DNA of 64,000 nt from Pseudomonadota bacterium (GCA_021811945.1 JAKAPE010000001.1:1518-65517), one strand, 5' to 3'; counted from the stretch's first letter, positions 17,475 through 43,006 are shown. Translations and numbers: made by a program. The notes: generated by a model from the letters alone, not told the origin.

Positions 17475-18719
17475 GTGCCGAGCCTTACCGATGGAGAAAT
17501 ACGCCGCGCTCTGAAGCAGGTGGAGCAGACGGGGAAGCAGCTAAGCCTCGTCGATGGAGAGGGACACGGCACCGGCCGTCTCGTTCTGGTCATGAAGCCC
17601 ATGCCCACCCGCATCACGGCGGACTGGATGGCGCAGCAGTGGCGCGATCAGAAGCGTCTGAAGAAGAAGCTCGGCTCGTACCCGTCAATGTCACTGAGCA
17701 AGGCGCGGGAGGTTTTCGCCCGCGACTTCGCCGACCTGATCCAGAAGGGCCGCAGCATCAAGATCGCCGGCGACACGCGGCCGGGCACGGTGGCCGACTT
17801 GTTCGAGGCTTACGTCCAATATCTGAAGGACGCGGAAAAGCCTTCGTGGAAGGAGACAGAGAAAGGCCTCAACAAGATCGCTGACGCCCTCGGCCGCAAC
17901 CGACCGGCACGCGAGATCGAGCCCGACGAAATCGTCGAGGTGATCCGGCCGATCTACGAACGCGGCAAGAAGGCGATGGCCGACCACGTCCGAAGCTACA
18001 TCCACGCTGCCTATAGCTGGGGCCTGAAGTCAGAGCACGATTATCGCAGCGCTTCCCAGCGCCGTTTCCGGCTCGTGTACAATCCCGCCGCCGGAATCCC
18101 GACAGAACCGAAGAAGGTCGGCACGCGCTGGCTCGACGAAGACGAGTTCGTTCGGCTCTACCGCTGGCTCGAAAACCCGGACGCACCCGTACATCCGCCC
18201 TATACGAGAGCCGTCCGCATACTCATGCTGACCGGTCAACGCGTGGAGGAGATTGCGCGTCTGCATGTCGACAACTGGGACGCCGAGGAGAAAATCATCG
18301 ACTGGTCGAAAACAAAGAACGGTGCTCCCCACGCGATTCCGGTGCCTCCCATCGCCGCGGAACTGATCGAATCGATCAAGCCGAACGAATACGGTTGGTT
18401 CTTCCCGTCAGCGAAGGATCCCAAGAGACCCGTCAGCCACGGGACGCTCTACAGCTTTATGTGGCGGCAGCGCGATCGCGGCGTCATCCCTGTCGTCACC
18501 AACCGCGATCTCCGCCGGACCTGGAAGACGCTCGCGGGCCAAGCTGGCGTTCCAAAAGAAATTCGCGATCGTATCCAAAACCACGCGTTGCAGGACGTAA
18601 GCTCGAAAAGCTACGACCGCTGGAACTACATGCGCGAGAAGCGAACCGGGATGGCCAAATGGGACAAGTTCGTCCGAGCGATGCTCGCGAAGAAGCGCCC
18701 TCTCAAGCTCGTCGCTTAG
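17475..18719 (+). CDS. int: Tyrosine-type site-specific recombinase/integrase
   Basis: Catalytic-domain pattern LMLTGQRVEEI (Arg I), ...HAIPV..., RDLRRTWKTLA (H-x-x-R region), NHALQDVSSKSYDRWNY (Tyr). GTG start at 17475. Confidence 0.9.
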   Translation: MPSLTDGEIRRALKQVEQTGKQLSLVDGEGHGTGRLVLVMKPMPTRITADWMAQQWRDQKRLKKKLGSYPSMSLSKAREVFARDFADLIQKGRSIKIAGDTRPGTVADLFEAYVQYLKDAEKPSWKETEKGLNKIADALGRNRPAREIEPDEIVEVIRPIYERGKKAMADHVRSYIHAAYSWGLKSEHDYRSASQRRFRLVYNPAAGIPTEPKKVGTRWLDEDEFVRLYRWLENPDAPVHPPYTRAVRILMLTGQRVEEIARLHVDNWDAEEKIIDWSKTKNGAPHAIPVPPIAAELIESIKPNEYGWFFPSAKDPKRPVSHGTLYSFMWRQRDRGVIPVVTNRDLRRTWKTLAGQAGVPKEIRDRIQNHALQDVSSKSYDRWNYMREKRTGMAKWDKFVRAMLAKKRPLKLVA

Positions 18720-18868: not shown

Positions 18869-19918
18869 GTGACGATCCAACACCCGATGCCGCTTTACCA
18901 CACGACGCTCTTCTCGAACGATCCGCCCGGCGAGGCCTTCGCCTCGCGCGGCGCAGCCTGGTCCTTCGAAAAGGAGCCGGGCGTCTACCGTGGGACCCCG
19001 AATGAGATACACGCCTATTCCATGAAACTATTCAAGCAACGCGGCCACGCGGCGACCGGCAACTACGGGTCGGATGACGTGCCCGTGTTCTTCGACATGG
19101 AGATTATGATCCGGGCACAGAAGCTGGCGCATGCGCAACAGGCTATGAACTTGCTGGTCTCGGCGATGGCCGCGCTCGAAGGTTCGATCACGTTTGGTCC
19201 GGAGCCATTCAGCATCGAGCCACGGGCGGTCGGCGCCGCGGCACCAACCACGTCCTACCTCAGCCGGAGCGGGTTTCTGGACGCCTGCGTACTTGCGAAC
19301 CGCGCCAGCCGAAAACGCTCGTCAAGCTACGCATTACATAAGCTTGCGCTAAGCTACCAGTCCTCCTCGCCGCACCTCATGGACCTCCACCCGAGTGAGT
19401 CGCCGAGGCGATTTCAAGTGCAAAGTGATCCGATCTACCACGTGTACGTCGCGAACGCCGTCACGCTCGCGTACTCTGCAATCGAGGAACTCGGCTTGGA
19501 GTTGCGGGCAAGTCAAAAGAATCCATCGAAGATGCCAGACGGCACATGGAATCCGGTCGTAAAGGCGGATCTCGAGGAACGGCTTCAAAAGTCGGGCATC
19601 GACCTGTCAGATACGCATATATGGACCCTACGCGGACCCAAGACACGCATCGAGAAAAAGCGTCCGCCGCCTTCCGCGGGAAAGCCGAGCTGGTCCCGCG
19701 GCAATGTGCGCGACGTGAATGTCTGGCTGATCGATGCACTGGCCCTCGCAAGCTGGTTGCGCAGTAGCACGACAACCCACCGTTTCTCTGATGCCGCGCG
19801 CAGCTTGACAGTCTACGACGCGCATAACGTCCAATCGCTCGCACGTCATCTCATCATGGAGAAGTTTGGCTTTTGGCAGGCGCGAAGCAAGGAGTCGTCG
19901 GCAAGGAAGGACGCCTAG
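18869..19918 (+). CDS. Hypothetical protein (349 aa), no family recognised
   Basis: Long ORF with ordinary amino-acid composition, convergent with the Ubl operon. GTG 18869 or ATG 18887. Contains R-x5-H (LRSSTTTHR) near the C-terminus. Confidence 0.55.
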   Translation: MTIQHPMPLYHTTLFSNDPPGEAFASRGAAWSFEKEPGVYRGTPNEIHAYSMKLFKQRGHAATGNYGSDDVPVFFDMEIMIRAQKLAHAQQAMNLLVSAMAALEGSITFGPEPFSIEPRAVGAAAPTTSYLSRSGFLDACVLANRASRKRSSSYALHKLALSYQSSSPHLMDLHPSESPRRFQVQSDPIYHVYVANAVTLAYSAIEELGLELRASQKNPSKMPDGTWNPVVKADLEERLQKSGIDLSDTHIWTLRGPKTRIEKKRPPPSAGKPSWSRGNVRDVNVWLIDALALASWLRSSTTTHRFSDAARSLTVYDAHNVQSLARHLIMEKFGFWQARSKESSARKDA

Positions 19919-19942: not shown

Positions 19943-20995
19943 TTAGCGCTTGGACGAATAGGGCGTCTTGGAAGGAAGGCCCAACGCGTTGACAAGCCTG
20001 TCGTCGTCTGTGTTGGGGGCGTTCAACAAGCCGAGGCTTGCCTTGGGCGGCGCAGGCGGCCAATGCGAGAGAAGACCCCCAACGCCGGGAGCAAGCGGCT
20101 TCTCGCCCAATCCGAGTGCTGAGAGCGCACCAAGACCGAGGTGCGGCTGGGAAGGAGTCGTTGTCCGCGGCCAGTCGCGAACCGTCACGCGCTGGATGGT
20201 CCAGCGCCCGTCCGCCGTGACGTCGATGCGCATTGAACCATCCTTGCGGGTCGTGGCCACGTACCGCCGTTCGTTTGTGACGAAGACCGCGCCAGCGCAT
20301 CGAGTCCGATACCAGTCGTCAGTATCCTGACTGTCGTATTGACGTTGGTCATCCGAGACGATGACAAGCTGCGGCCGGAACAATTCGAACAGTTCGGTGC
20401 AGCAACCGCTGTCCCGGCCATGATGTGAGGCGACGAGTACCGAGACGTTCAGCACGTCCTGGCGGAAATCCTGGAGCGCCAGCAAACGTCGCCAGCCCGC
20501 AACCTCAAGATCGCCCGTGAACAGGATCTTGAACGTGCCGAATTGGGCGATGACCGCGAGGCTGAGATCGTTGGTCTTGTTCTCGGCCCCAGGGACGAAG
20601 AAGGGATAGTACCAGCGGATTTGAACATCCCCGAAATCCGGCTGCGCTCCAGCCAATGGATTTTTCGGTTGGGCAAGCCAAGCCGCGACCGCTTGCGCGC
20701 CGGGTCCCATGCCATCCTTCTTGAGCATCGCGAACTCGCGCGGGCCGACAGTGGGATTGCTGAGAATCCAGGGGACCGTGCAGTCCTGCATCACGTTCTT
20801 GAAGTCGCTCAGGTGGTCCTCGTCGAGATTCATCAGGCCAAGCAGATCGACAGTCTCGCGGAAGAAATGGAGCGAAGGAGTCCAAAAGCGATCTTCACCC
20901 CAACGGTCGCCGCAATCGAGCATCATGCGTCGCCCGTTTGGCGCGGTGAGCATGGCGCATTGGCCGTGACCGACGTTGAAGATTTCAATCCGCAT
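19943..20995 (-). CDS. ComEC/Rec2-related metallo-beta-lactamase-fold hydrolase (copy 2)
   Basis: FNVGHGQCAML..MLDCG, FTGDLE, LVASHHGRDSG, which is the COG2333-like MBL pattern. The start overlaps the patatin stop by 11 nt. Confidence 0.78.
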   Translation of the reverse strand: MRIEIFNVGHGQCAMLTAPNGRRMMLDCGDRWGEDRFWTPSLHFFRETVDLLGLMNLDEDHLSDFKNVMQDCTVPWILSNPTVGPREFAMLKKDGMGPGAQAVAAWLAQPKNPLAGAQPDFGDVQIRWYYPFFVPGAENKTNDLSLAVIAQFGTFKILFTGDLEVAGWRRLLALQDFRQDVLNVSVLVASHHGRDSGCCTELFELFRPQLVIVSDDQRQYDSQDTDDWYRTRCAGAVFVTNERRYVATTRKDGSMRIDVTADGRWTIQRVTVRDWPRTTTPSQPHLGLGALSALGLGEKPLAPGVGGLLSHWPPAPPKASLGLLNAPNTDDDRLVNALGLPSKTPYSSKR

Positions 20996-22199
20996 CGAGA
21001 GTTTCCTCGGCGCAAGACGGGTCGTTGACGAGATGAGGCAGATAGCTGCGAGCCAGGCAGAAGGTCAGTTGCTCCCCGCGCAGGCCGAGGCGCTCTATCC
21101 ATTCCTCCGGCATCGCGTTGAAATCAGTCGGATAGGCGTGTGCTTCCTCGCGGCGCACGAGGTCCGCGGGCGGTTTCGGGAGCTGCCGGTCTTGTTGTCC
21201 AAGATACGGGAACAGGAAAGCTTTGATTTGCCCAGTCCGCTGCGCCTCGTGCAGCCGGTGCATGGCGGCGTTCTGGGCACGATCGAACACCGCGCTGAAG
21301 ACGCTGAGCATGCGCGCGAAGATAAACTGACCTGGCGGATCCTGCCGCAAGCCGTAGCCTGCCGAGCAGCAGATGATCGTGTCAACCGGAACTACGTTGA
21401 GGCTCACGTCCGGCGACCGGTCCGGCCAGAGACAGCCGAGGCCGAGATTGTCGTAGATGCCCCCGTCGGTCAGGATGACGCGGCTATCCTTGAGCGCTCC
21501 GTCCTTTTCGAAGGTCAGCGTCTCGTCGAACGCCGGGAGAAAGAGCGGATAGGCCGCCGAGGCGGCGACTGCGTGGGCCACCGACGCATCGTTGCGGTGT
21601 ATCTTGCCCCAGCGCCAAGATCCCGACTCCATGGTGCCGAAGCGGAACGCCGATCCGGTTCTCAGCTCTGTGGCGTTGATGACGAGATGCGGTTGTGCCG
21701 ACAGGTCCTTCAGGGACGCTCCCTTGAACAAGAGGTCGTCGAAGACCGCTTCGAGCAAGGTGGTCCGGCTCGCGAAGCGATGCAGCGGCGATCGGATCTC
21801 GAAGCGCTCGAAACGCGCCGCGAGCCCCGGGGGCGTGACCCAGCGCGCCACCTTGATCGCCATCTTGATCAAGGTGACGGCGAGCGCGACCAGTCCAATC
21901 ACCACGAAAGCGGCGGCGACCTTGATACCGGTCACGCTGAAAAGCTTGCGGTACATCGGCGCCACAAGTCCTTGGCGGAGCAAGTGGCGGATTTTCGCCT
22001 CGAAGGAGGCGAAGTCGCCGTGGTGGGCGTGGAAATAAGCACCAATTACGCTGCCGCCCGACACCGTCGAGAGAATGGCAACGTGATCGAGAAGTCCGAG
22101 CCGCTTAAGCGCGCGCAGACACCCGAGGTGAAACGCGATGGCGCGCGAGCCGCCGCCCGAGAGGGCGAGGCCGATCCTGGGGGCGACCGCCGCGTCCAT
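20985..22199 (-). CDS. Patatin-like phospholipase
   Basis: Oxyanion GLALSGGGSRAIAFHLG, nucleophile elbow STVSGGS, catalytic Asp LTDGGIYDNLG. A hydrophobic segment (VAAAFVVIGLVALAVTLI) sits mid-protein. Confidence 0.87.
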   Translation of the reverse strand: MDAAVAPRIGLALSGGGSRAIAFHLGCLRALKRLGLLDHVAILSTVSGGSVIGAYFHAHHGDFASFEAKIRHLLRQGLVAPMYRKLFSVTGIKVAAAFVVIGLVALAVTLIKMAIKVARWVTPPGLAARFERFEIRSPLHRFASRTTLLEAVFDDLLFKGASLKDLSAQPHLVINATELRTGSAFRFGTMESGSWRWGKIHRNDASVAHAVAASAAYPLFLPAFDETLTFEKDGALKDSRVILTDGGIYDNLGLGCLWPDRSPDVSLNVVPVDTIICCSAGYGLRQDPPGQFIFARMLSVFSAVFDRAQNAAMHRLHEAQRTGQIKAFLFPYLGQQDRQLPKPPADLVRREEAHAYPTDFNAMPEEWIERLGLRGEQLTFCLARSYLPHLVNDPSCAEETLDAD

Positions 22200-22212: not shown

Positions 22213-23073
22213 TCAGGCCGCGGTGGCCGGCGCGTTGACAGACCTGATAAGGGTCGTCGTCAACTCTGTCGGTCCGGGCTGGGTCAAGAGCGACACGCCG
22301 CCCTCCATGTTGGTCGCAAAGACGTGCTTCGCCACGCGGCTATAGACTTGCAGCGCCTGCGGATGCGGGTGGCCGTACTGGCTATCGACGCCGGCACTGA
22401 TCAGAACCGTGTGCGGGGCGATGTTGACGAGCGACGCCGGATGCGTCGCGTTTTTCGAGCCGTGATGGGGTGCGGCGAGCACGTGTGCCTTCAGCGCGGT
22501 GCCGAAGAGCTTATTGATCCGGTCCCAGCGCGGATTCTCCGTGTCGCCGGTGATGAGGTAGGAGAAGCCGCGAGCACCGAGCCCTGTGAGTTTGAGCACG
22601 ATGCTGCAATTGTTGGAGCAGTCCATGTCCTCGATGTGCGGCGAGAAGAGTTCGAACTCGAACTTGCCCGAGAGGCCGGTCAAGCAGCGGTTGGCGAGTT
22701 GGTCGACGCGCACCGAGACCTTCCTCAAAGGATTGTTGGTTTGCCGGCGCGCCGCCTCCTCGGCATTGATGAGGGCGAAGACGCGCTTCGCCTCGTCGCT
22801 GTCCTTGTAGTATTTGGGGTACATGACCCAGTCCGGGCGGTACTTGCGCAGCACGATCGAGGCGCCCACGATCTCGCTGTGGTCGCTGTCGAAGCCGGTC
22901 AGAATGAGGCCCGTCACGCAATGGTCCTTCAGGGACAGCGCCATGATCTCCTTGACGTAGGCCACGGTGCTGTCATCGGCCGGCGGAATGCGGCAATCGA
23001 CGATGATGGCTTCCTTCTGGTGCCTCACGATCGCGAGCGCGCCTTGGCCGACATTGACCGTGATGATGTTCAT
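22213..23073 (-). CDS. ComEC/Rec2-related metallo-beta-lactamase-fold hydrolase (copy 1)
   Basis: MNIITVNVGQGALAIV..IVDC, ITGDTE, LAAPHHGSKNA. ATG 23073 lies 5 nt after the JAB stop. Confidence 0.78.
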   Translation of the reverse strand: MNIITVNVGQGALAIVRHQKEAIIVDCRIPPADDSTVAYVKEIMALSLKDHCVTGLILTGFDSDHSEIVGASIVLRKYRPDWVMYPKYYKDSDEAKRVFALINAEEAARRQTNNPLRKVSVRVDQLANRCLTGLSGKFEFELFSPHIEDMDCSNNCSIVLKLTGLGARGFSYLITGDTENPRWDRINKLFGTALKAHVLAAPHHGSKNATHPASLVNIAPHTVLISAGVDSQYGHPHPQALQVYSRVAKHVFATNMEGGVSLLTQPGPTELTTTLIRSVNAPATAA

Positions 23074-23078
23074 GCCCC

Positions 23079-23996
23079 TCACCCCTTCTTGCCGCGATAG
23101 AGCGCCTGGTTGAGATCGCGTTCGAGCTGCAGAACGGCGTGCCTCGCCGAGCGGAACTTGCGCGCCCGGTACTGCGTCAGGATGTCGGCGATGACCGGGT
23201 TCTTGCAGGACGTGGCGATCGAATAGGACCGCGCCTTGTCGTCGGGGTCCTCGATCGCCACCACCTCGGCGCGCGAGCCGTCGACCAACTGCAACGGCCC
23301 CTTCCAATAGGGCGCGCCGCTATCCTTGGAGAGCAACGCCTTGAGGCCCGGATAGAATTCGGCAAAGAACTCCTGATCCTTGGCGCGCTGCGGGTTGGCG
23401 GCGCCGGTCTGGGCAGGCTGCGGCGGAGGATCGCGCGGCTCCGCATTCTCGGCCATCGCGCGCGGGCGCAGAACGGGGGTATCGACGAGCCGCACGTCTT
23501 TCGCGAGAACCTCGTAGATCGTGTCGTCGCCGCGCCGGAAGATGAAGTGCTTCACGGCGTAGCGCGGGTTGCCGCCGCCGTTCTTGGTGACGACGAGCAG
23601 CGCGTAGAAGAAGTCGGTATTGTGATTCTCGTGGTTGACGGTCTTGAAGTAGGTCTGCTTGTCGCCGCCGCTCAAGGTCGGGTAGCCGTTGACGTGATGG
23701 GTGTGCCAGTTGCCGAGATGCTCGATTTCGGGGTGGCTGGCTTCGATAGCGCGGAATAGCTTTTCCTGGTGGTCGCCGTCCTGCAAGAAATAAGTCGACG
23801 TCCGTTGCGCGTTCGGCCCCGGCTCGAGCACGCCCTTGACCTCGATGTCGTAGCGCCCCTGGTCATGGCGGTAGGTGCCGAGAAGCCGGCCGCCGGTTTC
23901 ATCGACATCGTAGCGGTCGCACTCGTCGAACACGGCTTCGAGCGCGCCGCGCGCGATCGAGATCGAGAACACCGGCTTTTTCGATCTAAACAGCAT
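23079..23996 (-). CDS. JAB/MPN (JAMM) metallopeptidase with a C-terminal extension of about 150 aa
   Basis: Complete JAMM signature: E (DVDETGGRLLG) ... HTHHVNGYPTLSGGD (H-x-H-x7-S-x2-D). The start overlaps the E1 stop by 11 nt. Confidence 0.85.
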   Translation of the reverse strand: MLFRSKKPVFSISIARGALEAVFDECDRYDVDETGGRLLGTYRHDQGRYDIEVKGVLEPGPNAQRTSTYFLQDGDHQEKLFRAIEASHPEIEHLGNWHTHHVNGYPTLSGGDKQTYFKTVNHENHNTDFFYALLVVTKNGGGNPRYAVKHFIFRRGDDTIYEVLAKDVRLVDTPVLRPRAMAENAEPRDPPPQPAQTGAANPQRAKDQEFFAEFYPGLKALLSKDSGAPYWKGPLQLVDGSRAEVVAIEDPDDKARSYSIATSCKNPVIADILTQYRARKFRSARHAVLQLERDLNQALYRGKKG

Positions 23997-24858
23997 GGGC
24001 CGTGCTCCTCGTGGCGCAGACCGCACACTGCTCCTGCGGGCTGAGCGCGGTGCGTTGCAGGTGAAAATGCTTATTGAAGGGATGGACAGGCCGGTTGCCC
24101 CAGATCAGGTAGTTCTCGTCGATAGGATCGAGGAATTTGGGACGCTCGCCGAGGCGCCTCGCGACGGCGTCGAGGACAAACCGGGTGTGGAACGAGGTGA
24201 TGAAGGTGATGTCCACCGTGAGGCCAGGCGAGTCCTTGATCTCGGCGATCTCCATGCCATAGACCTTCTCGCGCTCCTCGTCGGAGACGAGGTCGATCTC
24301 GCGGATGCCTTGCCGGAAGGGCGTGCGCTGCAACGCCGCTTCGAGGCAGGCGAGGCAGGCGCCCTCTGGCGGACGGTAGGCGAAGACTTCGCCGCCGATG
24401 CCGCGGGTGAACACACGGCCGACCACGAACGGAACGCCGTGGCGGATGCACATCTCGTTGATGGTGTAGCGGGTCGGCTCGTTATCGGTGGCGAGCACCA
24501 CCACGTCGGCCTTCACGATCTCGGCGGCGAGGCCGGGATAGTTCATGATGTCCGCGTCGATCTTGGCGATGCTGGCGTTCGGGTTGCGGTCGTGCAGCAC
24601 GTCGGCGACGGCGTCGGTTTTCTTCTGGCCGATGTAGCGGCGGCCGCAGACATGCCGGATGACGTTCTCCGGCCCGAGGATGTCGTTGTCGATCAGCGTG
24701 AAGTTGCGGATGCCGGACATGACGAGCTGGAGCGCGACGCTGGCGCCACCGGAGCCGCAGCCCGCGATGAGGACGTTCACGTTGGCGAAGGCGGCAATGT
24801 CGAACAGCGTCTCGATGCGTTCGAAGGTGCGGTCGGTCATGGCGCGGTCAGTCATCAT
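23986..24858 (-). CDS. ThiF/MoeB/E1-like adenylyltransferase
   Basis: Rossmann motif VLIAGCGSGGASVALQLVMSGI..TLIDNDIL, conserved R/D adenylation residues, and two CxxC pairs (CLAC ... CAVC) as in the ThiF/MoeB zinc site. The ATG overlaps the upstream TGA (ATGA). Confidence 0.87.
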   Translation of the reverse strand: MMTDRAMTDRTFERIETLFDIAAFANVNVLIAGCGSGGASVALQLVMSGIRNFTLIDNDILGPENVIRHVCGRRYIGQKKTDAVADVLHDRNPNASIAKIDADIMNYPGLAAEIVKADVVVLATDNEPTRYTINEMCIRHGVPFVVGRVFTRGIGGEVFAYRPPEGACLACLEAALQRTPFRQGIREIDLVSDEEREKVYGMEIAEIKDSPGLTVDITFITSFHTRFVLDAVARRLGERPKFLDPIDENYLIWGNRPVHPFNKHFHLQRTALSPQEQCAVCATRSTAHAV

Positions 24859-25382
24859 GCATCCGTCCTTTCCGGCCATTCGCCGGTCTTGCACCACTTG
24901 GCGTAGTGTTTGAGCCAGACCCGTGCGAGGCCGAGAGCGTGGCTGACGTCGTGGGTCTTGACGTTCCAAGCCGTCGTCGCGCCGAAGATCGAGAGCGCGC
25001 CGTCCGGCCAGCGCTGCGGGGCGTTGGACGCGACCTGCGCGGCGTAAATCCGCGGCGCGGAATTGGGGTAGCCATGCGGCAGCACGATGCTGACGATGAT
25101 GTTCTCGCCGGCGGCTGTTTCCGGGCAACTGATCTCTAGTTCTTTGCTCTCATTGATCGTGAGCTTGTAGCTCTCCTTCTTGCCGTCGAGCTTGGCGAGC
25201 TCTTTGGCGATGCGGTCGGGGGCGATGTCCGGCAGCAAGAAGGAGACCGGCACGAGGCAGGCCTTTGGCTGGCCGTTGCGCTCGACGACGAAGACCTCGC
25301 CGTCCCGCGCCACGCGGTCGAGAACCTCGCCCGGGGAGCTGCGCAGCTCCATCATCTTCAAGGTCTTGAAATCGACTTTCAA
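24855..25382 (-). CDS. Phd/YefM-like N-terminal domain fused to an E2-variant (UEV-like) domain
   Basis: The N-terminus ELRSSPGEVLDRVARDGEVFVVERNGQPKACLVP resembles Phd/YefM antitoxins. The C-terminus LPHGYPNSAPRIYA...DGALSIFG...W is paralogous to the neighbouring E2 but has Ser where the E2 Cys sits. Start is TTG 25382 or ATG 25355. Confidence 0.6.
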   Translation of the reverse strand: MKVDFKTLKMMELRSSPGEVLDRVARDGEVFVVERNGQPKACLVPVSFLLPDIAPDRIAKELAKLDGKKESYKLTINESKELEISCPETAAGENIIVSIVLPHGYPNSAPRIYAAQVASNAPQRWPDGALSIFGATTAWNVKTHDVSHALGLARVWLKHYAKWCKTGEWPERTDA

Positions 25383-25392
25383 AGGCCGCCCC

Positions 25393-25773
25393 TCAGTGCC
25401 TGATCTCGGCGCCTGGCCAGGTGCCGCCGTTGTTGCGCCAGACCTCGTATTTGTTGAGCCACTTCGCGGCGCGGCCGATGACGAAAGTCAGGTGATGGAC
25501 GCCCGGGTTCCACATCGTCGGATGCAGGTAACAGATGTGCCCGCCCTGATACCGGTGCGGCGCATGGGTGATGGTCGGCGCGTCGATGAACACGCGCGGC
25601 ATCTCGTTCGGATAGTTGTCAGGGAATTTGATCGAGAGCACATACTGTCGGCCGTTCGAGGTCTGCAGCGCCGCACGGGCATAGACCTTGCCGTCGAGCG
25701 TCGGCTGCAGCTCGACGAGCGCGAAGGTCCGCTGTGCCTCGGCGAATTCGCGGTGGATGCGAGCGATGTCCAT
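25393..25773 (-). CDS. E2 (UBC)-like protein with candidate catalytic Cys
   Basis: FPDNYPNEMPRVFI....HAPH...GGHICYLHPTMWNP parallels the eukaryotic E2 pattern FP..YP..PP.v.F...i.HPN....G.ICL..L...W.P. Confidence 0.65.
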   Translation of the reverse strand: MDIARIHREFAEAQRTFALVELQPTLDGKVYARAALQTSNGRQYVLSIKFPDNYPNEMPRVFIDAPTITHAPHRYQGGHICYLHPTMWNPGVHHLTFVIGRAAKWLNKYEVWRNNGGTWPGAEIRH

Positions 25774-25781
25774 CGCGGGCC

Positions 25782-25955
25782 TCAATACTCGCCGCCGAGG
25801 TTTTCTTTCATCGTCAGCGGCTTCTTGTTGCCGAGCTCGGACGACGTGGTCTGACCGATCTGTCGAATCTCGCCGTTCGGCAGGATCTGGATCGGGATGT
25901 CCTCCTCGCTGTTAAGGAGCCGCTCCAGCTCGTCGATTTTGGACTGTTGGCTCAT
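25782..25955 (-). CDS. 57-aa protein ending ...ENLGGEY; candidate ubiquitin-like modifier/tag
   Basis: Strong RBS (GGAGGGAAGGA-ATG). First gene of the operon. The C-terminal Gly-Gly is followed by two residues. The stop lies 8 nt before the E2 start. Confidence 0.5.
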   Translation of the reverse strand: MSQQSKIDELERLLNSEEDIPIQILPNGEIRQIGQTTSSELGNKKPLTMKENLGGEY

Positions 25956-26004
25956 TCCTTCCCTCCAAGGGCACGACACGACTCACGAGCTAATACAATT
26001 GCAC

Positions 26005-26032
26005 ACCCTACAACGGTTGCGCATAGAGTCAA
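26005..26032 (-). promoter_or_regulatory. Possible sigma70-type promoter of the Ubl operon (TTGACT-N16-TAGGGT)
   Basis: Minus-strand TTGACT (26032-26027) and TAGGGT (26010-26005), about 50 nt upstream of ATG 25955. Pattern match only. Confidence 0.25.
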
Positions 26033-26202
26033 TTTAAGATTTGGGGGGGGCGGGCGCTGATGGCTACCAGATAGGGGGGGTGCGGATCCGCCGCCAGCCG
26101 TAAGCGCGAAACTTGTTCCGGCCGGGAACTTGCGCCAAGGCACCGGAGTGCGCTCGGTTTGAGTATTGTTCTCGCGGCGGCGGGACGAACGAATGTCTGG
26201 CC

Positions 26203-26449
26203 ATGATCTATTACGTCGGGTCGCCCTTCACTGAGGTCGAAGGTGGCCTCGCGCCCGGCCAGGCCGTCGAGTGCTTGAGCAACGCCACCGCAATCGGCGC
26301 GCCGAGGCGAGGGCCGCGAACCAATGCAATGCCGGTGCCGTCGCCTTCTCCCGCAGCGGCGACCTCAATTTCGGCGAGTTCGAGACACCGTCATCCTTAA
26401 GACCTTCGGCGAGGTGCCCGAGGATTTCACCAGACCGCCGACGGCATGA
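26203..26449 (+). pseudogene. Decayed small ORF read through three frames
   Basis: Protein-like segments continue across two frame changes: MIYYVGSPFTEVEGGLAPGQAVECLSNATAIG / NAGAVAFSRSGDLNFGEFE / DTVILKTFGEVPEDFTRPPTA-stop. This resembles a small conserved rhizobial plasmid/island protein from memory only. Confidence 0.3.
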
Positions 26450-26623
26450 TCTACCGCAAGGGCGAGCTATCGCCAGCGATGATCAATCGCGGGTGCGCGC
26501 ACGCGAAACGATCAGCAAACCCCTCGCAATTGACGATGGTCTTGCCGCTGTAGTCCGGGTCGACCTGAGCGATATGACGGCCCGGTGCGGTATCGGCCGA
26601 ATGCACTCCTAAGAACCCGAAGA

Positions 26624-29600
26624 TTAGGAGACGGCCAACGTGGAATTCACCATCTCGAGATAGCGGCAGAACGCGTTCGCCAACTGAATCTGCCGCGGCG
26701 TCCGGCACTCCGTTTCGAATATCTGCGGTGAGCCGACGAGGACCGATACGCATTTGGCGCGCGAAGTCGCAACATTGAGCCGGTTGAGGCTGTAGAGGAA
26801 CTCCATTCCGCGCGGCGCGTCCGCATGGCTGGAAGTGGCCATCGAATAAACTGCGATCGGAGCTTCCTGCCCCTGGAACTTGTCGACCGTGCCCACGCGC
26901 GCACCCGACAGGCATTGCTGAATCTCGAAGACCTGCGCGTTGTAGGGCGTGATGATAACGATGTCGTCGAGCGTGATCGGCTTCTCTTGCCCTTCGCGAT
27001 CGACCCAAGTCGCCTTGCTCGCGAGGATCGCCCGCACGAGACGCGCGACCGCTTGTGCCTCTTCAGGCGAGCAGTTCTGATTGCCGCTGTGTGCGACAGG
27101 GAGAAGGTAGAGACCAGACCCGCTGACCGGTCCGGACCCTTTGATGACCAGCTTCTCTAGCCCGGTCTTCGAGCGGAGCTTGCCGTCATAGAAGACCTCG
27201 GAGGTGTAGGCGCAGATCGCAGGATGCAGCCGCCAGGTCTCTTCGAGAAACAGGCCCTTATCCGCAGAAATCGTCCGCTCGCCGCCGAGAATATGATCGA
27301 GCGCCGACACATCGGTGCCCTCCGGGTGGCTGCCTTGCATCGGCTGATCGAGTTGCTGCGGATCGCCGATCAGCACCACCGTCTTCGCCGCCTGCGACAC
27401 GGCAAGCACGTTGGCGAGCGACATCTGCGCGGCTTCGTCCACGAAGAGAACGTCGACCGTCTCGAACGTGTCCGGCCGCGACCACAGCCATGCCGTGCCG
27501 CCGCCGACCGAGGCGCCGCCGCTCAATGCCGCGAACAAGTCCTCATTTCTCTTGGCGAAGAAAAGGCGATGCTGCGGGTCTTCGACCTCATCGGCCTTTT
27601 GGCAGCATTGCAGGTCGATTCCCAATTCGTCGGCCGCCTTGATCGTCGCATCGATCAGGTTGCGAATGACCTTATGACTGTTGGCCGTGATGCCAACTTT
27701 CTTCCCACGGCGCACCAGCTCGCAAATCATCTGCGCACCAGTGAAGGTCTTGCCCGCACCGGGCGGTCCTTGGATCGGGAGAACGCCGCCCGCCACGTGG
27801 CCGCACAGCCGAACGGCGGCTTCAACCGTCGTCTCTCCGGCGCGGTGCAGCGGCTCATCGCCGACGCGCGGGCTTCCTCTGAGCAGGAGATCGCGCGCCG
27901 CCTGATAAGGCCCATCGCCCCGTACGCCGTGATCGGCGACATAGTCGCCGATCCGCACCAGCGCCTCGGCCATCACTTGGCCGCCAACATAGCTGTGGGC
28001 GAACGCGGCTTGCGGATGGAGGCTGGCGGTATCCTGGCGCTTCTTGATATCGACGGTGTTGTCTGCAAAGGAGATCACCTCGACCTTGCCGAGTTTGGCG
28101 CCGCCGAGATTGCAGAGTTCCTCGCCGCCGCGAATTTCGGTCTCCTGCGGCGGGAAACGGTAACGATGGATCGGCGCCTTGGCTGTGCCGCCGGCCGTGG
28201 CGGCAAAGATAAGACCGGAGAGTCCGGCGCGCTCCTCGAGTAGATCCTCGGCCGAGAGAGCGGCCAGCCGGAAATACTCCCACCACACCGCCTTCTCTTC
28301 CCGGCGATGCCAATCAACAATGTTTGCCAAGATCCAACGGGCCTGCTGCTCCTCATTCCGTTCGGTGGGATCCACCGGAACATCCGCCGTCAGTCTTTCG
28401 ATTAGCGCATTGATCTTGACCAGCCAGTCGGTGATCTTCTCGTTCGGCGCACCGTCACCAGGTTGCGGTCGAGGCACGACTGTTCCATCAGCGACCAGCT
28501 TCGTCCGGTGCGCTTCGAGCCAGTCGCGCAAGACCACGGTGGAACGGCAATCATCCTCGTTGTAGGCGCGCACCACTGCCTTGGTCTCTTCGGCAATTGA
28601 CGGCGCATCGCTGAGCTCGATATTGGCCTGGAGATTGGCGAGCGCGACATTCGCATCGGTCAGTGGCGTTTGACGTTCGAAGCCATAGAGGGGCTCCAAC
28701 CGCTTGATCGAATAGCTTTCGACGCTTGCACGAAGACTATGGCGCACGACTTGATAGAGATCGACGAAGAGGCCGGCGCGGAGCATCCGGTCGATCTCCT
28801 CCTCGCGCGTCGCGTAGCGGCCCATCAGGCGCTTCAGGGCCGCCGGCTCATAGGGAGCGTAGTGGTAGACGTGCAGGCCGGGGAACAGAGCCCACCGCGT
28901 CATCACAAAATCGACGAACTTTTCAAAGGCGCGCTTCTCGTCGGCGCGGGTGAAAGCCCAGTCGCCCTCGTAGACGAGCGCGCCGTGTGCGTCCTTGAAC
29001 AGATAGCCGACCAGATATTCGAGGCCATGCTCGCCGACAAATGGATCGCCTTCGAAGTCAAGAAACACATCGCCATCAGAAGGCTCGGGCAGACGGGTGA
29101 GCCCGAAGCCGGTCTCCACCGGCAGCAGCTCGAATATGCGAGTCCCTGCTGTGCGGGCCTCGACCACGATCCGCGCCTGCTCGCGGATGCGGATATAGGA
29201 ATCGGCCGAACCGCGATCGGGCTTCCACTCGAGCGGCAAGGGCATGCCGGCCAAACCTTGTACCGTCGCGACATCGCGTGCCTTCAACTCATTGATCTGA
29301 ATCTTCGAGATGCCGGCAACGAGGCAGAGATGATCGTCATCGCGGCGACGCTTGTCGCAAGCCTCTCGCCAACGGCAGATATCGCAATGCTCGATTGGAT
29401 CGGGGTAGGTGTCATCTGTCGCCGGCGCGGCCATGGCCGTCAGCAACCCGCGCTTCACCTTTCGGAAATACGCCGCATAGTCGGCGAAGCGATATTGCTG
29501 CGGCTGAAATTCCGACCACGGCGCGACGACGTACATGTATTCGGGCGGAAGTCCCTGCATGGCGGCCAGCAGGTCGGCGTAGAGACAGAGCTGGAGGATC

Positions 29601-30031
29601 GTTCCGGCTTTCGTTTCGCGTGCGAGCTTCGTGTCGACCGGCTCATAGGACCAGCCGCCCAGCGCGCTCGGTACTTCGACGCGGCGCAGGATGTCGGCGC
29701 GTCCGTTCCAGCCCTGATGCGCGAGTGCTGCCTGAGCGATGACCGGAACACCGCGCTGCATGATGGCGCGCGTCTCAGCGACGGCCCCGTGCGTGACTTC
29801 GACACCGTCGATCCGCACGGCGTCCAGCCCTGCGGTGGTGAGGTGCTCTATGTAACTCTGCTCATGGGCTATCCCGCGTTCGGCCAAGATCTGCAGAAGG
29901 GGGTCCCAGACCTTCGGCTTCGATAACGCCCCGTTGGCCACCGCGCGGTCCAGACCCGTGAGATGATGACAATTCAGGTAGCCGACTAAGTCGGTCGCGC
30001 TGAGCTCGAAGGACTCTCCGACCTTTTTCAT
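26624..30031 (-). CDS. RecB/Cas4-like nuclease + RNaseH-like domain (TM0106-type) fused to an SF1 (DNA2/Upf1-like) helicase, 1135 aa
   Basis: N-terminus has GRADIL...YEPVDTKL (PD-(D/E)xK) with [10 protein letters not shown], then DFEGDP (RNaseH-like). C-terminus has [38 protein letters not shown] helicase motifs. Confidence 0.88.
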
Positions 30032-30939
30032 GTGGTTTGAAAGCTTAGGTCGCGCACGGGAATGTACGCGCGGTTAGTTTCAGCAGCACGGCGCGCCTTT
30101 TCCTCGAGCACTGCAATGAGCGAAACGCGCCGCGATAGCACCTCATACAAATCCAGCCCGTCGACGCAGATGAGGTTCGTCTGACGGCCACGGCTGAATG
30201 CCTCCAGGCCCTCCTGGGTGAATCCTGAGTTGCTGACAAATAGGCCGCGCGCCCACGCCGCCTTGCCCGAGACTTTGCCCGAAAACGCCATCAGGTCGGC
30301 AAACCCAATCTGTGGCCCATGCCACTTGGCTTCGACCAGGTAGGTTTCCGTGTGCAGCCGAAAGCTCCCGTCAATCTGCTCTCCCACGATACGGAAGGAA
30401 CCACGGGGCGCCAGACCGAATGCGGCAAATATATCCGAGAGAAAACTTTCAAACCTCAGGCCTCTTTCTTGTGGGCTTAGGTTCGATATCTCGATCAAGC
30501 GCGCAATCAACGTCTGAGCGGCCGCCTCTGCCAACATTGGCTCGGGCGCAGTGCGTTCAGTCTTCGGCGGCTCGCCGAAGGTCTTCAAGAAGGCTGGATC
30601 GAGAAGCTCCGGAATCCTGAAAGACACGCCCGGCAGCGCCGCGTTCAATCGATCAATTTCATCGCGAGTCAGCGGATTACCCTTGCCCCGGCGCCAAGTC
30701 ATCGATTGGTGGACGATGGCGATCATCAACGGTGTGAAACGGTTCCGGCGATATTCCAGCGTTCGCTTCAGGAGCTCGACAATTGCCGGCCGCTTACTCC
30801 CAGAAGTCCAGAACTCACCGACACCGGCTTGGGCAGCAGCAAGCGGAAAAGCAGTCTTGTTATTGCCGCTTCCTGGCAGGAACTCATAGAGAATATCTGC
30901 GATATTCTCGATGGCCTGCGCTTCCGCGAGCGACAACAT
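30028..30939 (-). CDS. Mrr-like restriction endonuclease domain protein with an unknown N-terminal domain
   Basis: C-terminal half [12 protein letters not shown]...GEQIDGSF...YLVEAKW...[10 protein letters not shown] fits the Mrr_cat PD-(D/E)xK pattern. The stop overlaps the helicase ATG (ATGA). Confidence 0.72.
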
Positions 30940-30942
30940 AGC

Positions 30943-32055
30943 TCAGTCCTCCGACGAAACGAGTCTGAGCGGTGGCCGCGAGCGGCTTCGATCGCCGCTG
31001 TTGGGAATACCGTTGAGGCTGGTCAACGCCAAGCCGAACACTAGTTCATCAATATCTTTGGGGTGGACACGCAGCGCCTCTGCGACCTCCTCCTTGCTGA
31101 TTCCTTCCTTTCGGAGCGCCGCGAACACCTTTTGCAGCACCTGCGAGATCTCACGGGGCCCGCCCTCCGGCTCTTTTTTACGGAACCCACGCGACGACAT
31201 CTCGATATAGAGCTGGCGATAGTGCCATTCAGACAGAAGATCGAGTTTATGGAGCCGGTACGTCATCGCCGCCAGTGATACGCCCCAAACCTTTTTGAGC
31301 CGCATGAGATTGTCGATGGTGGCAAAGCGCGGCGCGTGGGCACGCACACTGGCTGGCGGCATCAGCAATGCGGACGCGAACGCGTTGGCATCCTGCTCGG
31401 CCTCCTGACCATTCGGCGCGGCGTGCCGATGCAGAACCAAATGTCCCAGCTCGTGGGCGGCATCGAACCGTCCATGCTCGGCCGACTTGAGCGTGTTGAG
31501 AAAGACAAAGGGGCGATCTCCTCGCCACATGGAGAATGCGTCAACCTCAGCAGCATCAATGGCGAGTGAGTAGACGCGCACGCCTTTCGACTCGAGCAGA
31601 TGCACCATGTTTTTGATCGGCAGTTCTCCCAACTCCCACGCACGACGTACCGCCGCCGCCGCCGTTTCGGGACTTGCATCACGACCGAGATCTGGCAATT
31701 GGGGCGCGGGCAAATCGAAGCGCGTTTCGATCCATTCGTTGAGCAGCATTGCCACAGCGCCGTTACCGAGCGCGGTGTCGCGTTGGCGCGCCGTCATCTT
31801 CGACAAAGACCGAAAGCTCGCCGTGTCGATCGCCGGCTCCTCGATATCGTCACCAAAGAAAAACGCCTGCGGAAAGTTCAGCGTGCGAGCAATGGTCGCC
31901 AACCGCTCAGGCTCCGGATTAAACTCACCCGTCTCGTAGGCTGAAACCGATCGCAACTCTACGCCGATACTCGCGGCGAGGCGGGTCTTGGTTAGTCCGC
32001 GTCTCCGACGAGCCCAGGTAAGGCGGGTGGGATTGAAGGCATCAACGACTGTCAT
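30943..32055 (-). CDS. XRE-family HTH fused to an ImmA/IrrE (COG2856) zinc metallopeptidase
   Basis: N-terminal HTH (RRGLTKTRLAASIGVELRSVSAYETGE) and HELGHLVLH (HExxH) in the central domain. Confidence 0.87.
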   Translation of the reverse strand: MTVVDAFNPTRLTWARRRRGLTKTRLAASIGVELRSVSAYETGEFNPEPERLATIARTLNFPQAFFFGDDIEEPAIDTASFRSLSKMTARQRDTALGNGAVAMLLNEWIETRFDLPAPQLPDLGRDASPETAAAAVRRAWELGELPIKNMVHLLESKGVRVYSLAIDAAEVDAFSMWRGDRPFVFLNTLKSAEHGRFDAAHELGHLVLHRHAAPNGQEAEQDANAFASALLMPPASVRAHAPRFATIDNLMRLKKVWGVSLAAMTYRLHKLDLLSEWHYRQLYIEMSSRGFRKKEPEGGPREISQVLQKVFAALRKEGISKEEVAEALRVHPKDIDELVFGLALTSLNGIPNSGDRSRSRPPLRLVSSED

Positions 32056-32696
32056 GCCTTTCGCTTCACATCGATATCGAGATCCGGCCCCACGGGCGCC
32101 ACGATTTCAACCTCGGCGCCGTCCAACGGGATCGATGGCAGCATGATGCGTTCCTGCCAGCGCGTGATCCGGCCGTCCGCCGAAATCTGCGACGGCAAGG
32201 ACAGTTCGCAACGCACCTCAGAGCCGGCACGGTGGAGAAGCAAAAACCAGGTCAGCGGACCCTCATCGCCCCGCACATGCGGCATGTCAGGAACCGGCAA
32301 ATCCAATTCGAGCTGCACCTGATTTACCGAGATGGCGTCTGCCGTGCTAACGCCCTTCGGCGCCCGGTTGCTGACATTGGCGGTTGGGATCCCCGTCCCC
32401 ATGTCGCCGGAAGCAATATTGATCGCCATCGACCCATCAGGGTGGATCACCAGGGCGTAGTTCTTCTCGTCTGACCGCGTCCAGCCAAGCGGCAGCAAAC
32501 CTTCCCGCAGCGCCGCAACTGCTTCCATCCAAGCCGCAATGCCGATGGCGAAGGGCGGGTGATTTATGGTGAAGCTTACCCAGGACAAATACCAACGCTG
32601 CGCCGCGTGCGCGAGAGGCTCATCGGTCAGCCCCATGGCGGCCAACCGGGCCTTCACGTCATCGGCATCTATGTACACGGACAGGGGCGCAGCCAC
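32052..32696 (-). CDS. Hypothetical protein (214 aa), first gene of the XRE-ImmA/Mrr/helicase operon
   Basis: GTG 32696 is preceded by GGAGAA. The stop overlaps the next start by 4 nt. No motif was recognised. Confidence 0.55.
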   Translation of the reverse strand: MAAPLSVYIDADDVKARLAAMGLTDEPLAHAAQRWYLSWVSFTINHPPFAIGIAAWMEAVAALREGLLPLGWTRSDEKNYALVIHPDGSMAINIASGDMGTGIPTANVSNRAPKGVSTADAISVNQVQLELDLPVPDMPHVRGDEGPLTWFLLLHRAGSEVRCELSLPSQISADGRITRWQERIMLPSIPLDGAEVEIVAPVGPDLDIDVKRKA

Positions 32697-32726
32697 TGGA
32701 TTCTCCGGGGAAGGGGCAGGTTCCGC

Positions 32727-32754
32727 TTTTTCTACCTCAAATGAGGGAGAAAAA
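32727..32754. promoter_or_regulatory. AT-rich 13-bp-arm palindrome TTTTTCTACCTCA-AA-TGAGGGAGAAAAA (one mismatch)
   Basis: Read directly. It lies 31 nt upstream of GTG 32696 and about 70 nt downstream of the res stop. It is a candidate operator or terminator. Confidence 0.3.
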
Positions 32755-32823
32755 CAAGAACCTCGGCCTCCTCCAATTGGGCTGTATTCCCCCGTCGCTA
32801 CCTGCCCCGGGGCGGAGCGTCCT

Positions 32824-35853: not shown

Positions 35854-35863
35854 CGAACAGGCC

Positions 35864-37789: not shown

Positions 37790-37816
37790 AGTTTCCGCTC
37801 CTTCTTCGCGACCGCT

Positions 37817-42803: not shown

Positions 42804-43006
42804 TTCTCGTGGCCCCTCCGGACACCGGTCGGTGCCGGTGGCTGATGGGAAGCCTGAGGCGAGCCATCGATGAATTGTCGAATCGCTTGTCGGATGACCC
42901 ACGAAACCGAAGCATCTTGCGCCAACGCGATCTCAGTCAGGGTTCGATAGTCCTGCTCTTCCAAGCTCACCGTCAGCCGTGTTGCCTTGCGAGGGCGCTC
43001 GTTCAT
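42800..43006 (-). CDS. Ribbon-helix-helix (CopG/MetJ-type) DNA-binding protein
   Basis: RLTVSLEEQDYRTLTEIALAQDASVSWVIRQAIRQFI is a classic RHH pattern. RBS is GGGGAG. It is translationally coupled to the SNF2 gene. Confidence 0.8.
   Translation of the reverse strand: MNERPRKATRLTVSLEEQDYRTLTEIALAQDASVSWVIRQAIRQFIDGSPQASHQPPAPTGVRRGHEK

Follow-up and report, generated by a model that had tools for sequence, protein, structure and literature searches.

A cysteine-less E2 protein fused to a Phd/YefM-type domain in a mobile, conjugation-type gene cassette

The cassette and its pair of E2 proteins

The stretch of DNA analysed here (the window) comprises 64,000 nucleotides from a Pseudomonadota bacterium (GCA_021811945.1 JAKAPE010000001.1:1518-65517). 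Between positions 19943 and 26032 it carries a tightly packed operon on the minus strand, with eight genes in the order small57, E2cys, PhdE2, E1, JAB, MBLa, patatin and MBLb. The third gene is the main subject of this work. PhdE2 consists of an N-terminal domain of the Phd/YefM type (residues ~4-51) followed by an E2 domain (residues ~52-173) that has Ser131 at the catalytic position. We regard it as highly probable that this protein is a pseudo-E2 fused to a Phd-type domain, within a mobile cassette that resembles the Cap2/Cap3 systems.

E2cys is encoded at 25393..25773 and PhdE2 at 24855..25382, both on the minus strand. A preliminary description of the sequence had presented the two as paralogous E2 proteins, one with Cys and one with Ser at the catalytic position. 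The span that it gave is exactly that of E2cys plus PhdE2, and both open reading frames (ORFs) are found there on the minus strand, together with every motif quoted: FPDNYPNEMPRVF and GHICYL...WNP in E2cys, LPHGYPNSAPRIY and GALSIFG...WNV in PhdE2, and the Phd/YefM stretch ELRSSPGEVLDRVARDGEVFVVERNGQPKACLVP of PhdE2. E2cys starts at an ATG, whereas the ORF list begins it at a TTG, at 25785. The start of PhdE2 is a TTG, homologous to the ATG starts of its relatives, and its stop codon shares an ATGA overlap with the start of the E1 gene. At the remaining junctions of the operon, the genes are separated, or overlap, by a few bases.

The paralogy of the pair is borne out by a BLASTP comparison, in which the two proteins are 33% identical over 85 residues (E 3e-14), with the Cys of GHICYL opposite the Ser of GALSIF; judged in this way, the similarity is far beyond chance. 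Both proteins also match E2 families or folds. E2cys, a standalone E2 of the CBASS type, matches UQ_con (E 2.2e-5, at 24.5 bits below the cut-off of 27), Prok-E2_B (E 8.5e-4) and the CBASS-type E2 models of PADLOC (down to E 2.1e-11). By sequence alone it is a UBC-type protein with an invariant Cys, and the block C-x-x-H...WNPG-x-H is likewise invariant. In 26 sequences, a His three residues past the Cys (C-x-x-H) and a His that is the last or second-to-last residue of the protein are both invariant. Two of the PADLOC E2 models match PhdE2, at E 6e-5 and 2e-4.

The structure of PhdE2 was modelled confidently with AlphaFold2 (AF2) from an alignment of 27 sequences (mean pLDDT 90.6, pTM 0.81). 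The model has the secondary structure β-α-α-β-β, followed by an α-helix, four strands, a long loop region and a long helix. Residues 52-173 are predicted to adopt the UBC fold, with helix α1, a four-stranded sheet, an active-site loop and helix α2. A comparison with UBC and UEV folds had been proposed in the preliminary description, and the model matches both. A Foldseek search of the PDB identified Ubc13, UFC1, UBE2S, Rad6 and the UEV domain of Vps23 (E ~2e-4 to 1e-3, probability 1.00). VIA, which is independent of Foldseek, gave Z scores for residues ~50-173 of 10.9 for BubB, 10.1 for UFC1, 9.6 for the UEV domain of Tsg101, 9.3 for that of Vps23, 9.0 for the CBASS CdnG-associated E2 and 8.4 for Cap2. 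BubB from Citrobacter is the best structural match (root-mean-square deviation (rmsd) 2.7 Å, 104 residues aligned), where a difference in Z within 1 counts as a tie and BubB and UFC1 are thus tied.

A profile of the PhdE2 family aligns with human UBE2A (E 1.3e-4), with 'DGslsif' placed on 'DGSICLD' so that the Ser column falls on the Cys, which we take to be the catalytic Cys of UBE2A. The 'PH' of the PhdE2 family aligns with the 'PN' of HPN in UBE2A. Ser131 is therefore aligned both to Cys81 of E2cys and to the Cys of UBE2A, an equivalence based on sequence and profile alignment and not on superposition of coordinates, and the claim that the second protein is without a catalytic Cys stands. 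A UBC fold, matching Ser and Cys positions in the alignment and a Phd-like N-terminal domain, on which the preliminary description depended, were all found. Around the former active site, residues W125, D127, G128, L130, I132-G134, W139 and N140 are invariant in 17 sequences. A prediction of the complex between E2cys and PhdE2 gave a score of 0.01 against a mark of 0.32, which counts neither for nor against binding.

The N-terminal domain of PhdE2

The preliminary description had also assigned a Phd/YefM-like domain to the N-terminus of the second protein, and this assignment is upheld. The family model TIGR01552 (phd_fam) matches PhdE2 at 24.7 bits, above its cut-off of 20.8, and PF02604 matches residues 7-47 (E 2.9e-6, 27.4 bits). 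The fold of the model is that of the Phd/YefM N-terminal domain: in VIA, residues 4-51 superimpose on the N-domain of VapB46 (Z 7.2, rmsd 1.8 Å, 44 residues aligned) and on M. tuberculosis RelB1 (Z 7.2, rmsd 1.0 Å, 46 residues aligned). A phmmer search of PDB sequences with residues 1-55 gave 0 matches. This domain is the best conserved part of PhdE2, being 85-98% identical within the crown group of relatives, compared to 69-91% for the whole protein.

Only half of the antitoxin is present. The PF02604 match spans profile positions 3-43 of 74, which is the N-terminal half, and the remainder of PhdE2 is the E2 fold. There is neither a C-terminal toxin-binding region nor an adjacent cognate toxin: the neighbours of PhdE2 are an E2 and an E1, and no Doc-, YoeB- or PIN-type toxin gene adjoins it. 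The earlier idea of a toxin-antitoxin-type interaction domain is not supported for these reasons. The nearest unfused relatives (L024 and L025) resemble ordinary short antitoxins, and in L025 a PIN-like ORF follows, as judged by eye from a DTSALV motif. One predicted protein, P0121, carries the Phd N-domain twice in tandem ahead of the E2 domain.

Public records name the PhdE2 family only as 'Phd/YefM antitoxin', which is a misleading name. Pfam 38.1 labels the relatives found in the ESM Atlas with both PF26395 (E2-CBASS) and PF02604 (PhdYeFM_antitox).

Loss of the catalytic cysteine

PhdE2 has neither a catalytic Cys nor an upstream motif of the HPN type. The residue at the catalytic site was compared in three sets of relatives. 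Among the 120 closest cluster representatives (at least 74% identity) it is Ser in 101, Ala in 16, Gln in 3 and Cys in none. In 23 genome loci, from at least five phyla, the numbers are 17 Ser, 2 Ala, 1 Gln and 3 Cys, and in 60 metagenome loci they are 44 Ser, 15 Ala and 1 Gln. The position equivalent to the His of HPN is relaxed too, the 120 representatives having Lys (56), His (26), Asn (14), Gln (10), Met (6), Arg (5), Gly (2) or Thr (1). E2cys, on the other hand, has retained its Cys in 23/23 genome loci and 80/80 metagenome loci.

Seven deeper full-length relatives of PhdE2 (37-50% identity) retain both the Cys and the His. Two further deep relatives have Pro at the catalytic site in an alignment of 225 sequences, with P0150 reading Asp in a smaller alignment. 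Within the clade the site may thus be Ser, Ala or Gln, with Cys retained further out; the Ser of PhdE2 is not conserved as such, and the earlier description of the second protein is refined in this respect.

A maximum-likelihood tree was calculated for 45 E2 domains, hand-picked from the loci and representatives (the midpoint root serves for drawing only). All Phd-fused E2 domains lie on one side of a branch with support 100/99. The crown group without Cys forms a single clade (99/98), nested among Cys-bearing Phd-E2 lineages, and P0137 represents a separate loss of Cys. E2cys groups with other standalone E2s, apart from PhdE2 (100/99). A recent tandem duplication of one E2 was rejected on account of this grouping. 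The two proteins, which the preliminary description took to be duplicates, are thus homologous paralogs, but not recent duplicates of each other, the Phd-E2 proteins forming a clade of their own. Taken together, the alignments and the tree indicate that PhdE2 descends from a second, active E2 that had been joined to the Phd domain before the nucleophile was lost in the lineage of the window, and that it is a derived pseudo-E2 rather than a serine E2.

The small57 protein

The first gene of the operon, small57 (25782..25955, minus strand, with GGAGG upstream of its ATG), encodes a protein of 57 residues with an invariant LGGEY at its end, and is a candidate for a conjugated tag or E1 substrate. 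It is present with LGGEY in 23/23 genome loci and in 79/79 metagenome loci with room for it; in 7/23 genome loci there is a short variable extension after the Y. The invariant blocks are ILPNGE and KP..M.E.LGGEY. The ratio dN/dS is 0.08-0.19 in 11 of 16 pairs, dS being saturated in the other five, and on these substitution rates small57 is under purifying selection. No family was found for it in Pfam (even at E up to 10), PADLOC or NCBIfam, and a search of the ESM Atlas gave no usable match. AlphaFold2 predicts a helix at residues 3-16, a hairpin at 22-32 and a tail of low confidence (mean pLDDT 69.5, pTM 0.28).

In two predicted proteins, P0228 and P0210, small57 is fused in frame to the N-terminus of an E2 of the E2cys type, joined as LGGEY-A-(E2), and the two fusions are independent. 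In a third, P0241, the small57 module with its LGGEY is embedded in a protein of 199 residues, with other sequence on both sides. These three and P0121 (above) are predictions, which may be genes or artefacts of assembly or gene calling. Fusions of this kind have a parallel in BubAB, a Ubl-E2 fusion that, according to the sections consulted of the Bub preprint, is cut by the JAB domain of the operon (10.1101/2024.11.21.623953). The Cap2 preprint, in the part consulted, describes adenylation by Cap2 of the disordered, conserved C-terminus of a protein that is not a β-grasp protein, and cleavage by Cap3 exactly after it (10.1101/2022.03.31.486616).

We consider small57 to be the likeliest candidate for the E1 substrate, because of its invariant LGGEY, the purifying selection, the fusions to E2, the parallels with Cap2 and BubAB, and the variable C-terminus of MBLa. 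MBLa had been considered as the substrate by analogy with 6A-MBL, and was rejected on the grounds that its C-terminus varies among 22 loci.

Promoter and operator-like palindrome

A promoter for the cassette lies at 26005..26032 on the minus strand, with TTGACT at 26032-26027, a 16-nt spacer and TAGGGT at 26010-26005; the latter agrees with TATAAT at only 3/6 positions. Directly abutting the -10 element is an operator-like imperfect palindrome, GTGCAATTGTATTA, at 25991..26004. An alignment of 18 upstream regions, drawn from different phyla, has TTGAC, about 17 nt and TAnnnT at a constant distance from the first gene. When the regions upstream of small57 are aligned by TTGAC, they have TTGAC(A/T) ... 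TAnnnT followed immediately by an element of the TGCAATT(G/A) type. The cassette thus has a conserved palindrome of the TGCAATTG type just past the -10 of its promoter, and the element is often a clear inverted repeat, such as GTGCAATTAATACAATTGCAC in L008 and TGCAATTGCA in L013.

Defined as YRYAATYN, the motif occurs ~24-32 nt past the start of TTGAC in 17/19 upstream regions (18 genome loci and the window). At -65 to -15 it is found in 64/73 distinct metagenome upstream regions, compared to 20/1303 control windows taken from those loci; as the regions share a common ancestry, the counts show conservation and not independent recurrence. In the whole window an exact copy is found nowhere but at the cassette promoter. 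A generic search for inverted repeats at 25940-26640 gave three weak pairs at other places and missed the operator, which was recognised only through comparison between loci.

Other genes, conservation and mobility

The E1 (23986..24858, minus strand, as are all the cassette genes) is of the ThiF type (ThiF E 2.3e-31; PADLOC E1-E2, Cap2-like, E 4e-31), and its motifs GCGSGG and ATDN and its two CxxC motifs are conserved in 23 loci. The JAB/JAMM peptidase (23079..24026; Prok-JAB E 8.2e-5, PADLOC JAB E 1e-16) has the motifs ETGGR and WHTHH...LS.GD conserved in the same loci. It has a C-terminal extension of ~170 residues; this half of the gene (23079-23600) varies among the 23 loci, unlike the JAMM core, and a Pfam scan of the C-terminal 173 residues gave no family match. 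The extension could be a target-recognition or DNA-binding part.

MBLa (22213..23073), the last gene of the core, encodes a ComEC-like protein with the metallo-β-lactamase (MBL) fold (TIGR00361 ComEC_Rec2, E 8.1e-25). It scores 87 bits with the ComEC MBL domain and 35.3 bits with the 6A-MBL_enzyme model (E 6.7e-9, cut-off 220). It is followed by a patatin-like phospholipase (20985..22199; Patatin E 7.6e-16, no PADLOC match), which occupies a variable effector slot, and by MBLb (19943..20995), a second MBL-fold protein paired with the patatin, which strongly matches PDC-M48B, a candidate-system protein of PADLOC (E 4.8e-55). The preliminary description had linked MBL and patatin genes to the E2 pair, and MBLa, patatin and MBLb do indeed belong to the same operon.

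By tblastn, all 23 genome loci with a full-length relative of PhdE2 have small57, E2cys, PhdE2, E1 and JAB in that order. MBLa follows in 22/23, the contig of L013 ending before it. A metagenome set of 80 loci found with E2cys gives a similar result, with small57 ahead of E2cys in 79/79 loci with room. PhdE2, E1, JAB and MBLa are all present in 31/31 of the loci with at least 3.9 kb of room, and PhdE2 follows E2cys in 60/61 loci with room. The sole exception (L095, 488-1956) has E2cys followed directly by E1 and no Phd-E2 gene, with small57 retained.

The Phd-E2 family comprises 874 clusters at 90% identity and is common in soil and peat metagenomes. The hosts named for the cassette loci are Alphaproteobacteria (one of the sequences is a Bradyrhizobium chromosome), Gammaproteobacteria (Lysobacterales and Pseudomonadales), Acidobacteriota, Omnitrophota and Elusimicrobiota. 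Among 41 genomes of the genus and order of the window, only its own genome has the gene. A tyrosine-recombinase integrase is encoded at 17475-18719 on the plus strand (Pfam-type family scan). Because of this integrase and the patchy distribution among the 41 relatives, the cassette is considered to be a mobile element, and its six-gene core moves horizontally between phyla.

The region after the core is not the same in all loci. A patatin match directly follows MBLa in 9/23 genome loci, two of these matches being short (L002, residues 1-31; L022, residues 8-91). In diverged form, the pair of patatin and MBLb follows the core in L006, L010 and L019, and L021 has homologues of the two upstream, on the opposite strand; the pair may be a separable two-gene module. 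L011 and L023 have an additional MBL-fold protein downstream, and L022 a patatin. In most loci without patatin, the slot is filled by a protein with 3-4 hydrophobic segments: 11 of 12 downstream ORFs checked with a Kyte-Doolittle scan have 3-4 hydrophobic segments of 19 residues, and most are without a Pfam family. A conserved core with an exchangeable, membrane-directed effector is the usual layout in defence systems such as CBASS.

Comparison with known systems

The cassette shares features with several known systems. The 6A-MBL system (row 6a of Iyer et al. 2006; NF058523/NF058524) has a triple-module protein, E2-E1-JAB, next to an MBL. Common to both are the activities of E2, ThiF-type E1, JAB and MBL fold, the location on mobile DNA and the patchy distribution. 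The matches to the 6A-MBL models are weak, the E1 and JAB of the cassette scoring 60.3 and 46.3 bits with NF058523 (cut-off 320), and MBLa and MBLb 35.3 and 22.7 bits with NF058524 (cut-off 220). In contrast to 6A-MBL, the cassette has E2, E1 and JAB as three separate genes, and in addition a dead, Phd-fused E2, an LGGEY protein and a swappable membrane effector. Furthermore, in MBL pathways the signalling enzyme is itself the conjugated substrate, as stated in the discussion section of the Bub preprint (10.1101/2024.11.21.623953); MBLa is unlike such a substrate because its C-terminus is not conserved.

In Type II CBASS, the proteins Cap2 (an E2-E1 fusion) and Cap3 (JAB) conjugate and release the C-terminus of the CD-NTase. 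The cassette has a Cap2-like E1 and E2 (PADLOC E1-E2 E 4e-31, E2 E 2e-11), E2-CBASS labels on its relatives, a JAB partner, and a candidate substrate with a flexible, conserved C-terminus, which is not predicted to be a β-grasp protein. Patatin or membrane-protein effectors occur in CBASS too. Unlike Type II CBASS, it has two E2s, one of them Phd-fused, and an MBL in its core. Scans with Pfam, PADLOC and NCBIfam found no CD-NTase, cyclase or nucleotidyltransferase family in the cassette genes; the lone PADLOC 'Cyclase' match, to E2cys, covers only the C-terminal E2-like part of the model (positions 441-542). The cassette is therefore not CBASS, as these scans revealed no cyclase.

The Bub operons of Type I encode a Ubl-E2 fusion, BubAB, that is cleaved by the JAB-E1 protein BubCD, and their E2 is a serine E2. 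Points in common are the Ser at the catalytic site, BubB as the top fold match, and the rare small57-E2 fusions, which recall BubAB. For Bub, the same sections of the preprint (10.1101/2024.11.21.623953) describe an invariant Ser with an accompanying His, whereas in PhdE2 the Ser is not invariant, there is no S-x-H, a Cys-E2 is present alongside, and the candidate tag is not predicted to be β-grasp. DUF6527 (BubE) had no match in Pfam scans of the cassette proteins, and the cassette is not classed with Bub.

Eukaryotic UEVs (Mms2/Uev1 with Ubc13; Tsg101/Vps23) resemble PhdE2 in having a UBC fold without Cys that stands beside, or works with, an active E2. PhdE2 differs in that its loss of Cys is independent and recent, in a bacterial lineage of the E2-CBASS type, and in its fusion to a DNA-binding-type domain. 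With the Phd/YefM antitoxins, including VapB, it has in common the N-terminal β-α-α-β-β domain and a palindrome at its own promoter. Unlike them it has an E2 fold instead of a toxin-binding tail, and the next gene is an E1 and not a toxin.

On the basis of these comparisons, the cassette would work like the Cap2/Cap3 family (Type II CBASS, Type II Pycsar, 6A-MBL) and yet is a member of neither 6A-MBL nor CBASS. In the parts consulted of Iyer et al. 2006, a second E2, a Phd fusion and a small57-like protein are absent from all of the operon types 6a-6e. Inactive E2/RWD-like domains are noted there in type 6e operons, and these were later shown to be serine E2s, as the Bub preprint states in the sections consulted (10.1101/2024.11.21.623953). 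The portions consulted of the literature searched, which included PMC1779556, PMC13276650, PMC10557695 and 10.1101/2025.09.30.679545, gave no account of a Phd-E2 fusion, although architectures of a related kind might be listed in Table S1 of the Bub preprint. None of this literature joins Phd/YefM or prevent-host-death with E1, E2 or JAB, and 6A-MBL was met in it as a name only.

Proposed function

On the basis of these observations, we hypothesise that PhdE2 is the autoregulator, or a non-catalytic subunit, of a Cap2/Cap3-like conjugation defence system. We would put the chances of the regulator mechanism as a whole at about even. In outline, the substrate of E1 would be a C-terminal tail that is both flexible and conserved, most probably the tail of small57 once JAB has trimmed it at or after the GG. 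E1 would adenylate this tail and hand it on to the Cys-E2, much as the CD-NTase tail is handled by Cap2 and Cap3. The Phd-pseudoE2 would carry no tag. Instead, a dimer of PhdE2 would bind the TGCAATTG-type palindrome abutting the -10 and repress the operon, while the conserved face of the former active site would bind a component of the conjugation machinery, which might be E1, the charged E2 or the tail of small57. The state of the machinery would thereby be linked to transcription, to conjugation activity or to both, and PhdE2 would be a built-in regulator and not an enzyme.

PhdE2 is the obvious candidate for the binder because the site abuts the -10 and travels with the cassette between phyla; scans with Pfam, PADLOC and NCBIfam recognised no other DNA-binding domain in the core proteins. 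The invariance of the residues at the former active site implies that the E2 half probably still binds a partner. A role as an accessory subunit fits with L095, where the cassette is without the gene and yet has small57, E2 and E1.

Several points weigh against this proposal. The PF02604 match is just under the Pfam gathering cut-off (27.4 vs 29.8 bits), and a profile of 19 N-domains found nothing significant among solved antitoxins (VapB5 complex 3dbo E 0.27, VapB46 E 0.69). That the N-terminal half of Phd/YefM proteins dimerises and binds palindromic operator DNA, and that the C-terminal tail binds the toxin, is general background on the family, and dimerisation, DNA binding and protein contacts of PhdE2 are all inferred. 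The C-terminal extension of JAB could be an alternative DNA binder. The palindrome in the window is imperfect, with 8/12 symmetric positions as judged by eye, and a scan for consensus promoters and terminators at 25700-26700 gave 0 sites. The motif as defined is absent from two of the 19 upstream regions (L001, with one mismatch, and L003) and from 9/73 of the metagenome regions. As for the tag, small57 is not predicted to be a β-grasp protein, and its EY is as invariant as the preceding GG, which would be unusual in a tail that is simply trimmed; its processing site and its role as substrate are both uncertain.

Other functions can be envisaged for PhdE2. It might be a cofactor similar to UEV/Mms2, forming a heterodimer with the Cys-E2 and positioning the acceptor (a target lysine or another small57), so as to set specificity or chain type. 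The Phd domain would then only dimerise the complex, although a regulatory role would also be compatible. A UBC fold without Cys does adjoin an active E2 in one operon, structures of Tsg101, Vps23 and the Mms2 complex are among the fold matches (Z 8.5-9.6), and the invariant region of the former active site indicates a retained binding surface. We nevertheless think such a role unlikely: the tree does not show the two E2s as a co-duplicated pair, the conserved operator and the high conservation of the N-domain are left unexplained, and the L095 cassette is without a PhdE2 gene. Rather less probable in our view is a non-catalytic decoy, in which the pseudo-E2 would hold the pathway off until infection by filling the E2-binding site of E1 or covering the tail of small57. 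It would act on the pathway in the manner of an 'antitoxin', whether or not it also bound DNA. Tight control is needed in defence systems with membrane effectors, the ATGA overlap with E1 suggests translational coupling, and the E2 face is conserved without its nucleophile. Against this, the deeper relatives keep Cys and His, so that the ancestor was probably a working E2.

The domain family itself, which is that of type II antitoxins, might suggest that the Phd domain holds MBLa, patatin or MBLb inactive, as Phd does with Doc, and the nearest non-fused relative, in L025, is beside a PIN-like ORF (identified by eye). Only the N-terminal half is present, however (positions 3-43 of 74), and the toxin-binding tail of these antitoxins is C-terminal; in addition, the effector slot varies while the N-domain is 85-98% identical. 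This makes a neutraliser of effectors very unlikely. Least credible is a serine E2, with Ser131 as a real nucleophile carrying the tag as an oxyester, as in BubB. Such a mechanism does have a precedent, as the Bub E2s act through an invariant Ser, according to the sections of the preprint consulted (10.1101/2024.11.21.623953), and BubB is the best structural match, with its Z tied with that of UFC1. Nevertheless, Ala or Gln, which cannot be nucleophiles, stand at the site in 19/120 representatives, 16/60 metagenome loci and 3/23 genome loci. LSIFG has no His two residues past the Ser, where BubB has S-x-H, and the His equivalent to that of HPN is relaxed. A Bub-type serine E2 is therefore hardly to be expected, despite the fold match.

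Going further, the cassette might be an undescribed, ubiquitination-like defence system, with a largely unstructured modifier of 57 residues that is not β-grasp, activated by a Cap2-type E1 and carried by the Cys-E2, and a transcription factor made of a dead E2 and an antitoxin domain that senses the charging of the pathway and switches on the operon and its membrane or nuclease effectors. This fuller picture is tentative, and we would call it possible but doubtful. Were such a reader of the charging state to exist, an E2 fold would be wired directly into gene regulation, and UEV-like pseudo-E2s would have arisen independently in bacteria.

Among prokaryotic systems, the bacterial E1/E2/JAB modules (Type II CBASS, Bil, Bub and 6A-MBL), which function in defence against phages, are those most closely related to ubiquitination. 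The cassette is of interest because it bears on how pseudo-E2s evolve and on how conjugation-based defence is regulated, by a mechanism that we infer. It offers a clear and datable case of an active E2 becoming a pseudo-E2, with Cys-bearing relatives still extant, and hence a natural model for the origin of UEV-type cofactors. The combination of an E2 fold, an antitoxin-type DNA-binding domain and a matching conserved operator suggests that conjugation chemistry is directly linked to transcription, and small57 is a very small candidate modifier, of a predicted structure other than β-grasp.

Genomic neighbourhood

Immediately upstream of the cassette, at 26624-32055 on the minus strand, are three genes of the defence type. 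One encodes a protein of 1135 residues with Cas4-like PD-(D/E)XK, RNase H-like and SF1 helicase domains (PADLOC MkoA, E 1.6e-40), the second an Mrr-like restriction endonuclease, and the third a protein with an HTH and an M78 peptidase (PADLOC RmrA, E 2.1e-158). The neighbours of the cassette in the window thus fit a defence island. The cassette itself is probably anti-phage.

Between the integrase and MBLb is an ORF of 349 residues (18869-19918, plus strand), which has no Pfam, PADLOC or NCBIfam family and no homologue beside the cassette in the 23 genome loci. The G+C content is 0.53-0.61 across ~30-44 kb of the window (30001-44000) and 0.62-0.69 on both flanks, and this drop suggests that the foreign region reaches well past the cassette.

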